The notes under the pieces are model-generated. The model made no database searches. It was given only the letters and a program-made list of their open reading frames with translations, and had not been told where the DNA came from. Below, piece by piece: positions 10,881 to 64,000 of a stretch of DNA of 64,000 nucleotides. The position numbers were made by a program, and so were the translations under genes. Each line of letters starts with the position of its first letter. Within the stretch, counting starts at the first letter, position 1. The stretch is from Eledone cirrhosa (lineage: Eukaryota): contig OZ024745.1 of NCBI GenBank assembly GCA_964016885.1, positions 17,360,001 through 17,424,000 on the forward strand, read 5' to 3'.

Positions 10881-11108
10881 ATACAAGATATTACCAAATG
10901 GAAACAATATTTATAAAACCATATTTATTTCATTATACATATTTCAAGGGCCACCAGAGCAAACTATGGTGCGCTTTCATCAGATAAAATATAATATAGG
11001 TTAGTTTTATAAATAAATATTGACATACCCTTAAAAAATGCAACCATTCTGGTTGGAATCTCCTGGATAGTTTTGCTTATTGTATCCCAACAAATTAAAT
11101 ATAACTTC
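10881..11108. mobile_element. Family C PLE terminal fragment with HHR motif (10926-10991, minus)
   Basis: ttttat-CTGATGA-aagcgcacca...tggtggccctt-GAAA-tatgta-TA-atgaaata; homologous to 18.6, 45.4 and 61.3 kb. Confidence 0.75.
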
Positions 11109-11142
11109 TCTCTCCCCCCCTCTCTCTCTCTATATATATATA

Positions 11143-12137
11143 TATATTTATTAAAATAACAGATTAAAGTTTAAGCAAATAATCGCTGCTTTCACCCTTA
11201 ACGGGATCTTCTGAAACTAACAAAGTCAATCTGTGAACGCAGAAGTGAATATTTCAAAAGAAGTTCCAACCGGAGGAAGACAGGAAGATGATACTTTGGT
11301 TCGTGGAAATGTTCCCTGGCAAAGAACGGGAAAAAACGAATATAATACGTCATTATATGGAGCGGTGAAAAACAATTACACGCAAAGACAAAACCACGTT
11401 TATGGTATAAAAGAAGTCGTAGACTAATATTCTCTTAGGTGGTTCATAGAGACGTTCTCTGGCAATGAACGGAAAAAACGAAGATAATACGTCATATGTG
11501 GAGCGGGGAGAACAATTGCACGCAAAGACAAAACCACGTAAATGGTATAACTTAAGCCGTAGACTAAAATTCTAACTAGGAAACCGAATGATTCTCGGCT
11601 TCAGAGTTAAGAATAAAGTAAATAAAATACAGAGTTAGAATTTTAGTCTACGACTTAAGTTATCCCATTTACGCGGTTTTGTCTTTCCGTGCAATTGTTC
11701 TCCCCACTCCACATATGACGTATTATCTTGTTTTTTTTTCCGTTTTTTCGTCTCTATGAATCAAATATTTGTCTACGACTTCTTTTATACCATAAACTTG
11801 GTTTTGTCTTTGCGTGTAATTGTTTTTCAACGCTCCAAATAATGACGTATTATATTCGATTTTTCCCGTTCTTTGCCAGGGAACGTTTCCACGAACCAAA
11901 GTATCGTCTTCCTGTCTTCCTCCGGTTGCAACGTTTTTTGAAATATTCACTTCTGCGTTCACAGATTGACTTTGTTAGTTTCAGAAGATCCCGTTAAGGG
12001 TGAAAGCAGCGATTCTTCGCTTAAACTTTAATCTGTTATTTTAATAAATATTTGCTCTACGGTTCATATATATTTGATATATATTTATCCTTATCGAGCC
12101 CTCTTTGGATTTTAGTCTTCAAATTTATTATTATTAA
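11143..12137 (+). mobile_element. ORF-less fold-back element with arms of about 410-500 bp
   Basis: About 11143-11570 is inverted relative to 11640-12050; the right arm extends about 85 nt further. HHR-like CAGAAGA-tccc gttaa gggt-GAAA at about 11982-12005. Confidence 0.75.
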
Positions 12138-12146
12138 TATATATAT

Positions 12147-12299
12147 ATATGAATGACGTAAAATAAGAAAATTATAAAAATTAACTTACTTACTAAAATG
12201 TTTCTCCAACTAATTAGTTTCCGAAAGGGAATAAACATGGTTTTCAAATGGAAAGCATGGAGAAGCCGTTTCGTCATCAGGAAGTCTGTTCTCAGCTAA
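12147..12299 (-). mobile_element. Second family A fragment
   Basis: Similar to 143-282, with nearly the same start point. Confidence 0.8.
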
Positions 12300-59995: not shown

Positions 59996-60049
59996 AGAAA
60001 GGGTAAAGGAAAAGAGAGTGGTCTATTTAAACTACAGAGCTATTTAGTT

Positions 60050-60277
60050 ATGTAATAAACAACATAAGACAATAATTCCATTTACCAAAGGTTTCACGAA
60101 GACAGACGAGCTCAACACAGATGTCTGAAATCGGTCATCAGAATAAAAGTTATGAAAATTAAAATAAATTTTTTTATTTTCATTCTGATGGGCGATTTCA
60201 GACGCTTGTTTTGAGCTCGTCTGTCTTCGTGAACCCTTTAGTACTTGGAATAATTGTCTTATGTTGTTTATTACATC
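60050..60277. mobile_element. Fold-back with HHR motif (60080-60144, minus)
   Basis: 60050-60144 is inverted relative to 60182-60277; att-CTGATGA-long stem II-GAAA-cc ttt gg-TA-aat. Confidence 0.7.
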
Positions 60278-61260
60278 ACTATATATATATATATATATAT
60301 ATATATATATATATATATATATATATATATATATATATATATATATATATATCACGATAAATCAACGGAGCCATAGACTCTCGCTATTCCCTGTCATTAA
60401 CGTGCTCAAAGGAGGTGTTAATATATATATATATATATATATATATATATATATATATATATATATATATATATATATATATATATATATATCAGTGCTG
60501 GAGGCCTATAGAGACAGCTATATACTTTCAAGACCGTGGCACGACATGATCAACTGAAACCTGTAATAGAATGAAAGAGTACCAGAATTAACAATGCAAA
60601 CCCATATAAGTGTGCCGTCTATGAAACAAAATTATAATTACGATAAAAAATTCAGTCATAATTATAATTTGATAGAATATCAAAACATACATTAAATCTA
60701 ATTGTTTTATAAGATTGTTTGGCAAAATGGTTTAATTGGATTTTGTATGACCAGATCTTTACCATCTCTAAAATCAATAGAAATGTTGTTGATGAAATAG
60801 AGATTCAGTGAATACTAATAGATACAATTTTAATGAACTTTGGTTTGATATTAATATTCTTTCATTCTTAATATGATTTCAGTTACTGGACTATAGCAAG
60901 ATGTACCAAATCATAATCAACTATGTTGACACTAACTGCTTGTTCAGTTTGTTAAATTATCGATGTATATTTATCGTATGGTAAGTTAACTCGACATATG
61001 TATGCTGAAGCTACGAGCTCGACACCAACTTAGATAGACACATATTCACATATTCAGACTTATATATATATATATATATATATATATATATATATATATA
61101 TATATATATTTGTGTGTGTAAGTCCTGAATTTCCTGATAATTTATTTTGAATGAAACGGTTCTAGTCCTGTAGGAGACATTTCTATATTAACTATAATAT
61201 ATATATATATATATATATATATATATATATATATATATATATATATATATATATATATAT

Positions 61261-64000
61261 ACAATATATTAATAAATGGAAACTATATTTATAAAACCAT
61301 AATTATTTTATTATATATATTTCAAGGGCAACCATGGCAGTCTTGGAGCGCTTTCATAAGATAAAATACAAGATTTGTTTCATAAATATTGACATAACCG
61401 TGGAAAAATAACCTTGACGGTTGAAAGTTCGCTGGATAGTGGAGACATTTTTTATTGAGGGTATTTCAAAGTTCTGTGTGAGTATGCAAATGAATGTCTG
61501 AAAAATTGAAAAAAAACAACCGTTTATTTAAATTATACTGTTGGAAGGAAGAAGAGAGAGAAAAGAGAGAGAGAAACAAGAAAGAGAGAAAATAATATTA
61601 TTATACGTGGAGTTAGAGTGAAGAAAGAAAGTGAAGAAAGAAAGAGCGAAGAAATAAGCTTATCCGAGTTTGAGTTTGTATATCGTAAATACGTCATATG
61701 TTTATGTTAGATAATTATGTTACGTATATTTACTAATAATTGTTAGATTCTATTATAAGTATATAGAAAGTTAGATATATAGGAAAAATAAAGATAAAAA
61801 TTATACAAAACATCAAATTCAAGAATAAGATTATACAAAAAAAAGATAAAGATTATACAAAACATCAAATTCAAGAAAAAACAATTTGTAGGCCTGGAAT
61901 ACCCTAAAGGCCTTAAGAATAATATAGAAAATCTTGAAAAAACTGAGAAAATTCTCGTTAAATCTGACAAAACCAACAAGCTATATGGAATGCAAAAGGA
62001 CGAATATAATAATCTTATATTGAAGGAACTAAGGAAAAACTACAAGAGAACAACCAATGATGACCTTGAAATGCTAAACAGAGAAGCTTCCGATATAATT
62101 CATAAATTATGCTCGAAAATAGGACCGAACCCTTTATACCTAGAAAACAAAAAATTAATTTGAAAGACCACAAAAGAAATTTGAAATAGAATTGCCAGTT
62201 GGACTTATAGCACCATATAAATCAGACTTAGGTATAGTTAGTAAACATATATTAGATAGAATCATACCGCAACTTAAAGAAATATCATACTTAAAACTTT
62301 GGAACGGGACTAATGAAGTTATAGATTGGTTCAATAACATAAAATATAAGCATAACAAAAAATTCATTCAATTGGATATTGCAAATTACTACACATCTAT
62401 CACTCCTAATTTACTTAATAAAGCCCTTATCTATGCATATCAATATACTGATTTATCTAGCGATGAAATGCATATCATTTTAACTGTACGGAAAACCTTA
62501 ATTAAATTTAACAACCATCTTTGGACCAGAGCTGATAGAGATAATAATTTCGATATCACTATGGTGTCACCAAGCGCAATTAACATATATTGTGGGGCTT
62601 TTTATTAACAATGCATTACATAGAAAACTACCGGAGATCACCGGTGGTTTATATCGTGATAATATGCTGCTGTTAATTGAAAATAATAATAATTGTGAAA
62701 TCAATAGAAAAAGAAAATCAATAATACAATTTTTTAATAGCTAAAATCTTAAGTTAGAGATAGAGAATAATTATAAAATTGTTAACTTTTTGGACGTAAC
62801 ATTAAAGCTTAATACTGGGCTATACTATCCATTCCATAAAATTAATGAGAATTTAAATTATGTTAACTTTAACTCTAATCATCCTAGATCTGTTAAGAAG
62901 ACTATCGTAAATTCAGCGAATAAAAATATATTTGAAGATAAGGCACAATATTATAACGAAGCTTTAAGTAGAGCAGGCTATAATAATTTGTTTCTACTTT
63001 TAGCACAAGGCCAGCAAATACCCAGTGCATTACTGGTACTTTATTTTATCGACCCCGTAAGGGTGAAAGGCAAAGTTAACCTCGGCGGGATTTGAACTCA
63101 GAATGGCAAGGGCTGTAACTCCATGCGTCAAAGCATAGCGTCCGACCCTCTACCGATACTGCCAATGAAATTAAATACATCGACAATAATAATAAGGCAA
63201 TTAACCATGATATTAAACATAATATTAATTATAATTATAATTATAATAAGAAACCTAGCATAAACTCTAAAACTAAAAGAAGAAATAGAACTAGAAACAT
63301 AATATGGTATGCTCCTCCATTTTCACTAACTATTAAAACACCTTTAGCTAAACTATTTTTTAAAGCTCTTGATAAATGTTTTCCCAAGGCACATATATAT
63401 TATTCAATCTTTAACAGATATACAATTAAACTATCTTACTCCACTACTATGAATTTAGCACATGATATGAATAGAATCAATAATAACAATCTAAACCTTA
63501 ACCAGAATAGCACTAATACCTCTAGAATTATCCAATATAATAATACTGTTCCGAATAATATAAATTCTGATAAATGTAATTGTAGAATTAAATCTAACTA
63601 TTCTTTAAAAAGTCACTGTTTAGTCTATAAATGCAATGTCAAAACTAATGATAATATTTTTAACTATGTAGGCTCAACTTCTACAGACTTTAAATCCCGT
63701 TTCAATAACCATAAATGCTCGTTCAACTTCTTAAAAATCTTCAACTTCTCTATCCAGCTTGATAGGGAACCTAAAATACAAAAATATAGACTATTCTTTA
63801 TCTTGGAATATAATTTCAGAGGCACCTGCTTACGATAACCCAGCTTTATCCAAATTTTGCAATTTCTGTGTTGAAGAAATTTTCTTGATACTTAAATGTA
63901 AGAACTCCATTAATTTGCGTAATAATTTATTTAGTTCTTGTAAACATCGCCAAAATTCAACTTTTAGATATATATATATAATATAATTACACGTTTAATC
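61261..64000 (+). mobile_element. Decayed Naiad-type PLE preceded by an inverted family C arm; runs off the window
   Basis: Broken ORF at about 61850-63975 (KSDKTN, FIQLDIANYYTSI, GGLYRDN, FLDVTL, WYAPPFS, CNC, YVGST, CNFC, CKH); 61261-61440 is a family C terminus in antisense. Confidence 0.88.
62984..63166 (-). mobile_element. OK/Nin-like SINE inserted in the PLE ORF
   Basis: Full copy interrupting ...ALSRAGYN / EIKYID... Confidence 0.85.

Follow-up and report, generated by a model that had tools for sequence, protein, structure and literature searches.

The 64-kb stretch of DNA analysed here (the window) contains fold-back insertions in which one arm stops at a family-fixed site A and the other runs 46-125 nt further, as a tail, to site B. 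Among them is a family B fold-back with an intact open reading frame (ORF), the arms of which are 99.8% identical. Family B comprises:

46372-51400, fold-back B3 with the intact ORF; long arm 46372-49859 (sense on the minus strand), inverted arm 49860-51400 stopping at site A
47681-49834, minus strand, 717-aa ORF of a Penelope-like element (PLE), with reverse transcriptase (RT), C-terminal GIY-YIG and Hydra-clade motifs
46415-46452, minus strand, box 1 hairpin where the 78-nt tail begins (E 0.025-0.031)
1028-1065, 7469-7506 and 7764-7801, further box 1 hairpins (E 0.025-0.031)
985-1148, short fold-back B1, the site-A arm exceeding the body of the tail arm
7427-7661, short fold-back B2

The 717-aa ORF holds YRDD (RT) and VIY...YIG (C-terminal GIY-YIG endonuclease, EN) in one frame and found 2023 homologues among 8000 scored candidates; a Pfam search of it gave no match. 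Its RWR at 37 (RWK-like), DKT at 117, CxCX5C linker, lack of CCHH, and CxxC and CxH in the EN (572, 591-608, 670, 698) are shared with the Hydra clade of C-terminal EN+ PLEs as portrayed in the available text of Craig et al. 2021 (PMC8557442), as are (TA)n targets, seen in the window copies, and, in part of the window families, a hammerhead near the 3' end. That text also lists a Hydra-clade family from Octopus bimaculoides, and likeness to Hydra-1_Obim was judged by eye. Since the B3 long arm (3.49 kb, 5'-truncated) exceeds the clade size of "generally under 3 kb", we filed the elements as Hydra-type on protein motifs only. Family B further differs in that no hammerhead was found in its 1.3-kb 3' region, and the available text of PMC8557442 describes neither a twin box nor a tail length for the clade. 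The window elements are PLEs and non-autonomous derivatives, and the ORF motifs together with the TA runs at element ends bear out the PLE identity and microsatellite targeting proposed in a preliminary description of this DNA.

That description had placed family C arms at an equivalent site in four copies (10881, 18942, 45401 and 61261), with the other arm about 88 nt further. The four ends do agree within about 4 nt, and the long arms extend 89 nt (to 18503) and 86 nt (to 45859) beyond site A.

10881-11071, minus strand, site-A arm of copy C1; hammerhead core at 10983, predicted cut at 10934
11072-11107, plus strand, inverted partner arm of C1; only the distal ~36 nt of the tail, without overlap with the site-A arm
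18503-18942, fold-back C2; site A at 18942, 89-nt tail 18503-18591, box with one mismatch
45401-45859, fold-back C3; site A at 45401, 86-nt tail 45774-45859
45768-45801, plus strand, box 1 hairpin where the C3 tail begins (E 0.21; score 14)
61261-61445, minus strand, site-A arm of copy C4, ending at site A

The C1 partner arm aligned to the C3 tail with a score of 47, the shuffle maximum being 31. A broken PLE ORF at 61912-63724 (plus strand) belongs to an element leaving the window, and C4 is possibly its inverted arm. The remaining families are:

143-950, family A; the inverted arm (143-283) stops at site A and is followed by a sense arm, longer than a single 528-nt unit, that stops at site B; 109-nt tail
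12147-12299, third copy of family A, stopping at site A
6575-7382, family D, terminally redundant mini-element; 57-nt tail, hammerhead at 7070, box not found
11146-12137, family F fold-back; 86-nt tail, box 12046-12105
12314-12808, family L fold-back; 94-nt tail, short arm outside a long TA run, box not found
15493-18316, family G fold-back; 5'-truncated PLE ORF 16484-17185 (plus strand), 113-nt tail, box degenerate
18957-19878, family I, mini-element with terminal redundancy; tail of about 125 nt, hairpins resembling the box after site A and after site B (19489-19523)
20337-23838, family H fold-back; broken PLE ORF (minus strand), 87-nt tail with (AC)n at its end, box 20388-20426, hammerheads at 20523 and 23739
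38297-39145, family J, mini-element with terminal redundancy; 112-nt tail; a box follows site A and a weak hairpin resembling the box follows site B
45899-46350, family K fold-back; 46-nt tail, box not found
35347-35636, second copy of family K, stopping at site B
60014-60281, family M fold-back; hammerhead at 60141, box 60014-60048, long-arm end undefined
28114-28232, minus strand, lone tail-like segment with the best box match of the window (E 0.0007) and a TA run at its end, about 115 nt downstream

All 15 fold-backs with both ends defined combine one A arm with one B arm, and none is symmetric. Under free site use the chance of this would be 0.5^15 = 3e-5, a figure to be read with the non-independence of same-family copies; a 16th fold-back (60041-60281) was left out of the count since its long-arm end is undefined. 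The asymmetric fold-backs are genuine and, as stated in the preliminary description, the rule runs across families: tails given there as about 85, 115 and 85 nt were measured as 86, 113 and 87 nt in F, G and H, the geometry noted for family A from its starts at 143 and 12147 gave a 109-nt tail, and what was called "family D" (about 60 nt) is probably our 6575-7382 element (57 nt), the geometry agreeing and the matching of names being a guess. The suggested check for arms symmetric like those of DNA transposons gave 0/15, and we rejected a transposon with terminal inverted repeats or a MITE. A masked, sensitive self-BLAST of the window revealed no TA runs at equivalent sites on both sides of a fold-back. 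TA microhomology at the sites, also listed for checking, lay above chance (mean 3.2 nt against 1.0 or 1.8).

Arm identity in the window ranges from 87 to 100%, young arms being 99-100% identical. The site-A arm is nested in the tail arm in B3, G and K, which are all three fold-backs with long stretches at least 99% identical, and the hairpin centres of B2, C2 and C3 are near-perfect. Non-nested arms also occur: the C1 tail arm has no overlap with its site-A arm, and in B1, D, I and J the site-A arm has the longer body. Terminal redundancy (pLTR) was found in A, D, I and J, and inverted truncated copies in B3, G and H. The fold-backs contain 1.0-1.3 units; the only boundary suggesting a shared, defined 5' end in family A is where the copy at 12147-12299 stops, and such an end was discarded. 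In A, D, I and J, and in seven metagenome loci, the template runs on beyond site B. Site B is therefore internal, like site A, which overturns its earlier designation as a terminal priming site.

The earlier statement that a hammerhead lies upstream of the site holds for part of the families. The full type I motif occurs in C, H, M and D, the core and stem II only in A, F, G and K; none was found in B, I or J, and none convincing in L. The proposed conserved layout of hammerhead followed by two sites is not uniform: 38-56 nt separate the predicted cut from site A in C, H and M, but 282 nt in D, and B has no hammerhead in the region given above. A uniform distance was rejected. Rfam searches listed no hammerhead for the window (among the 150 of 156 matches listed) or for 45390-45860, and for metagenome locus L018 (40-260) gave sub-threshold matches only, one of them a hammerhead (E 0.63) and none of them to the box.

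Much of this is known from PLEs. According to the available text of PMC8557442 and PMC3846280, canonical insertions have a head-to-head inverted copy, terminal redundancy and a tail at one end only, as here; together with PMC11167929, again in its available text, these papers already give the general layout of inverted truncated copy, one-sided tail, two internal RT start sites and upstream hammerhead. Asymmetry by itself would thus be ordinary. Published tails measure 30-40 bp in the same text, compared with 46-125 nt in the window, where the one-sided tail is strict, and 55-83 nt of box spacing in relatives; published tail length being only descriptive, we treated longer tails as a variant. 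The small non-coding, often hammerhead-bearing PLE derivatives called non-LTR retrozymes (PMC7229834; bioRxiv 10.64898/2026.07.22.740005) resemble the window copies, which differ in forming fold-backs rather than tandem arrays and in several lacking a hammerhead: with at most about 1.3 units, none reaches the minimum of two hammerhead-bearing tandem units expected of a retrozyme.

What the preliminary description did not mention is a bulged hairpin (the box, of GCTC...TTGAGCAC type) marking the sites. In related metagenome loci it is present twice, in 30 pairs on the sense strand with a spacing of 55-83 nt. First, a descriptor frozen from the window matched within 150 nt after the hammerhead cut in 21/38 metagenome cases (shuffle mean 0.6, maximum 4). 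Second, the upper stem of box 1 covaries: pair 1 is paired in 29/29 (15 C-G, 14 T-A), pair 2 in 93% (shuffled 50%) and pair 3 in 86% (shuffled 39%). Third, insertion ends lying off contig ends fall at -4 to +8 nt from a box start in 14/14 cases (7 ahead of box 2, 5 ahead of box 1 and 2 unassigned), and seven contig-end rows scatter from -9 to 63. A model built from metagenome loci alone, seeded with 14 boxes of equal length since the hairpins are too variable for MAFFT alignment, had nine window matches below E 0.5, of which eight lie at site A or the equivalent position. Direct-repeat copies without visible inversion (L013, L028 and L029) stop at site A as well, so site A is used without fold-back.

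Box model R2 missed A, C2, D, G, I, J, K and L, and no box was detectable in D, K and L despite their A/B asymmetry. By our own score, G, M and the sequence beyond site B in A, D and J did no better than 33% of random windows. The first descriptor was not enriched window-wide (17 against 13.4 +/- 3.5), leaving only box position informative, and no relative was found among viral contigs. Covariation in box 2 is weak and the basal stem of the box is nearly invariant.

The mechanism we favour, with a probability of about one half, concerns insertions of Hydra-type PLEs and of non-autonomous derivatives in which the two arms stop immediately 5' of two box copies: two element-encoded proteins would occupy the boxes of one RNA, and each would prime from one nicked strand of the TA target. 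The template would be a terminally redundant transcript running from the hammerhead through site A, box 1, site B and box 2 to the ORF start. The GIY-YIG domain would nick both strands of (TA)n, and each 3' end would pair with a TA-like template stretch of 2-8 nt that precedes a box. The PLE RT is not known to have an RNase H, so that the same RNA could be copied twice. Joining of the two cDNAs at their 3' ends would give the head-to-head insertion. The tail would be as long as the distance between the boxes, and A/A or B/B combinations would be unfavourable, since each box accommodates a single protein. We counted for this twin-box mechanism the 15/15 A/B combinations, the box evidence from the metagenome loci and the window, the TA microhomology, the in vitro behaviour of an anole PLE (see below), the non-nested arms of C1, B1, D, I and J, and an opposite-strand joint in read run X1 that begins within the tail, from 46416 to 46509 (3 contigs). 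Against it we counted D, K and L without a box, the R2 misses and random-window scores given above, the nested arms of B3, G and K, the weak box 2 covariation with its near-invariant basal stem, and the start-site choice, equal on both strands in PMC11167929.

In LINE-1 twin priming, an inversion arises when the second nick in the target primes within the same RNA. The elements described here differ in having two fixed sites, marked by an RNA motif that is repeated, and in arms that mostly form an overlapping palindrome. In vitro, PAc, a Poseidon element from Anolis carolinensis (Frangieh et al. 2024, PMC11167929), cleaves and extends both strands from two internal starts that bound the tail. 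It shares an upstream hammerhead, an AT-rich target cut on both strands and a stem-loop at the start site, but belongs to another clade, has its start sites inside the ORF and is described with one AC-rich stem-loop and no duplicated box.

It is also conceivable, although rather unlikely in our judgement, that cDNA initiated at site B forms a hairpin and serves as its own template, with endonuclease cutting or a stop at site A and with the box acting as a DNA or cDNA signal. Such self-priming was proposed in PMC3846280 and EN-mediated resolution in PMC8557442 (available text of both), and the nested site-A arms of B3, G and K fit it, as do the hairpin centres of B2, C2 and C3. Later one-sided deletion could yield non-nested arms, but five window elements would need it, including D at 98.9% arm identity. 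Nor does self-priming sit well with the direct-repeat copies ending at site A or with PAc start sites that act on RNA in vitro, even though the D. virilis EN requires the tail for plasmid recognition (as cited in the available text of PMC11167929).

That the two nicks are primed by different RNPs, each carrying an RNA of its own, with a steric or kinetic bias towards A/B, seems to us improbable. This offers no simple reason for 15/15 A/B combinations or for young arms 99-100% identical, while it would explain overlapping arms without strand displacement, allow arm differences of up to 13% and suit the predicted dimerisation of PAc. We give very little weight to the box serving another function, as promoter, translation or packaging signal, with ends near it reflecting only TA-rich spacers that pair with the target. 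Box 2 does sit 13-26 nt before the first downstream ATG in 17/27 cases, and TA-like runs of at least 4 precede 16/29 box 1 and 16/27 box 2 copies; yet L005, L010, L024 and L028 end 2-5 nt before a box with little TA microhomology or non-TA flanks, and AT-rich sequence is plentiful elsewhere in the UTRs of these elements. Finally, DNA-transposon foldback elements, or an artefact in the form of assembly chimeras, suggested by the long inverted arms, are hardly credible given arms that are 87-100% identical and asymmetric at fixed sites, RT ORFs inside, and loose ends with a TA run at 46450 in read runs X1 (77 contigs), X4 (3) and X6 (1). Site B of family B was masked in this comparison.

Returning to the twin-box mechanism, the box hairpin likely tells the enzyme where copying starts. 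Two sites, an inverted copy and a hammerhead were already known; the twin box with its covariation and end placement was not found in the literature searched. More broadly, and at somewhat less than even odds, a duplicated, phylum-spanning RNA hairpin may be the RT-loading signal of Hydra-clade PLEs. Fixed-site twin priming by a pair of proteins, one on each box of a single RNA, would then account jointly for the existence, length and one-sidedness of the PLE tail and for the head-to-head inversion. It would also provide a transferable cis signal with two sites for programming insertions into TA repeats. The available text of PMC8557442 and PMC11167929 counts the way in which PLEs form their tail and inverted arrangement among the open problems, and a short duplicated motif that marks both ends makes this question directly testable in the existing in vitro system. 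For curators, the box is a marker of Hydra-type termini and of non-autonomous copies that resemble MITEs.

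We compared the window with itself by BLAST, together with an outward view of every arm pair and a masked, more sensitive self-BLAST, and found 16 non-SINE fold-backs of Penelope-like elements (PLEs) and derivatives in 12 families (A, B, C, D, F, G, H, I, J, K, L and M); the count omits SINE pairs from the masked search and short hairpins that lack TA flanks. All 15 fold-backs with both outer ends placeable are asymmetric, as the preliminary description had proposed: one arm halts at a family-fixed end (site A), usually within a TA run, and its partner runs on to a second end (site B). 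A chance figure of 0.5^15 is too strong, since same-family copies are not independent. The sixteenth, family M, has an undefined long-arm end. The tail, from A to B, measures 109 nt in A, 77-78 in B, 86-89 in C, 57 in D, 86 in F, 113 in G, 87 in H, 112 in J, 46 in K, 94 in L and, in the outward view, about 125 in I. The arm-end site claimed for family C agrees within about 4 nt in 4/4 copies; in family B, site-A arm ends are identical (3/3) and the four site-B arms match to within 1-2 bases. In families A, D, I and J, which are terminally redundant mini-elements, the tail recurs at the unit start. Thus, site B, first taken for a terminal priming site, is internal in the template. A 140-nt tandem duplication (11297-11573 and 11637-11898) is mirrored across both family F arms and is therefore older than that fold-back.

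Arm identities range from 87 to 100%. Moreover, when contigs of sequencing runs X1, X4 and X6 (organisms A, B and C; two studies) were aligned to 46027-46790, where site B is masked, among the runs listed, 77, 3 and 1 contigs, respectively, had loose ends in the TA run at 46450, the family B site A; X1 may be close to the source sample. Together, these identities and contig ends indicate that the fold-backs are not an artefact. Within family B in run X1, depth falls more than 10-fold at 46503-46520, opposite-strand joints recur at 46509-46510, and most copies are pieces of about 140 nt with a preferred 5' stop just past a GAAA-loop hairpin.

The coding content of the elements is as follows.

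PLE coding sequences in the window
47681-49834, reverse strand: intact PLE ORF with RWR, DKT, CxCX5C, GIY-YIG without CCHH, CxxC and CxH
Inside the family G fold-back: PLE ORF remnant, kin of the intact ORF
Inside the family H fold-back: remnant, same kin
29896-30492: remnant, same kin
54038-54859: remnant, same kin
61912-63724: remnant, same kin

Available sections of PMC8557442 list this motif set as Hydra-clade features, and the intact ORF is putatively assigned to Hydra by protein motifs. A GIY-YIG remnant at 8191-8502 (forward strand; CxxC before YIG, weak Pfam match) belongs to a different PLE clade from that of the intact ORF. Two PLE ORF remnants are split by a dispersed repeat of about 190 nt, presumably SINE-like by its look, present in more than a dozen copies (3875-4069, 9511-9681, 25340-25596, 30494-30621, 36150-36341, 40555-40669, 41831-42906, 55756-57038, 62980-63167). 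Adjoining fold-back M, an uninterrupted 262-codon sulfotransferase frame lies at 59086-59874 on the reverse strand (PF00685, E 3e-38). Finally, the regions 30907-32981 and 51554-54200 contain a local duplication (about 500 and 380 nt) and a GC-richer stretch that carries an 11/22-nt tandem array at 52564-52727.

A type I hammerhead descriptor (score at least 10) gave 11 motifs in the window against 0.05 over 20 block shuffles, located in C, H, M, D and a separate family E. A hammerhead upstream of site A, proposed as a general feature, is thus complete in the first four of these and reduced to core plus stem II in A, F, G and K; descriptor and core searches found none in B, I and J, and the core search gave just two one-mismatch cores, at chance level, in L. 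In C the cut lies 50-56 nt from site A; between families the distance is unequal (H 45, M about 38, D 282 nt). TA microhomology averages 3.2 nt over 16 family-sites (tabulated by hand; family A as the mean of two copies), above both the random-phase (1.0, P 1e-5) and the best-phase expectation (1.8, P 0.002). Family E (10630-10860 and 23870-24070; about 230 nt) has a type I hammerhead of compact form, with its core at 10751. Its two copies stop at the same 3' base, in each case directly against the TA run of a different fold-back. Beside family J, a small hairpin at 39184-39252 has a hammerhead-like core on either arm.

By folding the tails, we found a common hairpin just past site A, the box: its basal stem is 4 bp long, its upper stem varies, and a bulge of 2 nt lies on the 3' side. 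A frozen descriptor matches 0-6 nt past site A in A, B, C, H and J, and is not enriched window-wide (17 versus 13.4 expected). In 78 related metagenome loci, a few of them near-duplicates, with 44 hammerheads (38 with enough room), it matches within 150 nt past the cut in 21/38 cases (shuffles: mean 0.6, maximum 4), 19 of these at 38-56 nt. A second copy, box 2, is also evident there. A looser pattern, written after inspecting these results, gave 98 sense-strand and 20 opposite-strand matches (shuffled: 18 on each), covering 50/78 loci with 30 box pairs 55-83 nt apart (median 64). It does not require the upper stem, whose first pair in box 1 is paired 29/29 times (15 C-G, 14 T-A) and whose pairs 2 and 3 reach 93% and 86%, figures that ignore kinship among loci; covariation is weaker in box 2 and absent at pair 4 of the metagenome boxes. 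In those loci the basal stem hardly varies, and in the window it shows paired changes (ACTC/GAGT, GTTC/GAAC, TCTC/GAGA). In the portions of published consensi available, the box can be seen by eye at the 3' ends of coral Hydra-2_Amil and sea cucumber Hydra-2_Ajap, the 5' end of Hydra-1_Ajap and, with one mismatch, in a copepod, and is not seen at the Hydra-1_Obim ends. Another family has only tail-like pieces with TA-run ends (12999-13106, 45303-45415); its copy at 45329 has a box-type hairpin.

Then, we mapped the second copy's stop onto the continuing copy at the same metagenome locus (21 rows; BLAST ends imprecise by a few nt). All 14 stops away from contig ends lie within -4 to +8 nt of the start of a box (P about 1e-9 under a uniform null), seven before box 2, five before box 1 and two unassigned; the seven contig-end rows scatter (-9, -3, 2, 16, 54, 54, 63). 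One locus, L035, from another sample, is a complete A/B fold-back. A covariance model trained on metagenome boxes only (80 matches in 45/78 loci, picked for having boxes) gave 17 window matches at E up to 10. Eight of the nine with E < 0.5 fall on site A or an equivalent position (four in B; C3, a family C copy; F, H and M), and the ninth starts a previously unnoticed TA-ended tail (28196-28232). This model gave no match for A, C2 (another family C copy), D, G, I, J, K or L; the seed model matches a hairpin past the family I site B (E 0.19). By a post hoc score, 6/12 families reach a level found in 0.7% of random windows, with no box found in D, K and L. Box 2 has good support in the window in I alone and weak support in J, because site-B arms stop before it. 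We estimate at about 0.85 the probability that boxes mark both insertion ends. At metagenome locus L021 (2500-2700), two different Hydra-type elements share a single TA run with their tails facing each other, each ending at site B, and one box there is nearly identical in sequence to that of family H. In B3, a family B copy, the ORF arm is truncated about 25 nt ahead of the ATG (49835-49859), close to the place where box 2 ends in relatives, 13-26 nt before the ATG in 17/27; the truncation may reflect an RT stop or the RNA 5' end.

Such end-marking is much safer than the step to twin priming on one RNA, to which we give roughly even odds. In this mechanism, the most likely one, a single terminally redundant RNA would carry two proteins, one on each box, which would prime from the two target nicks, and the resulting cDNAs would be joined head to head. 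The model predicts strict A/B ends, a tail equal to the box spacing, and either arm being the longer. The longer arm is the site-A arm in D, I, J and the copies B1 and C1, and the tail arm in A, B3, G, H and K, the remaining fold-backs being about equal or unassigned. In C1 and the X1 joint 46416-46509, the tail arm never gets to site A. Against twin priming, the arms of B3, G and K are nested and the non-nested ones could stem from central deletions, so that self-priming with resolution at the box is a serious rival.

The consulted sections of PMC8557442 and PMC3846280 describe an inverted truncated copy and a tail of 30-40 bp that is often confined to one end, and those of PMC11167929 show in vitro that two internal RT start sites bound the tail, which lies downstream of a hammerhead; therefore, the hammerhead, internal site, terminal site layout of the preliminary description is largely published. 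In a Repbase consensus of Penelope-13_HM, the two hammerheads are about equidistant from both ends, which may be a counter-case of symmetric form. No description of the box or of twin priming in PLEs was found in the literature searched, which took in few subscription papers and included parts of PMC7229834, PMC4209133 and a 2026 retrozyme preprint, nor in Rfam among the matches listed. Taking these observations together, the PLE architecture is real and mostly known, and its twin hairpin signal has no published description in the literature searched.
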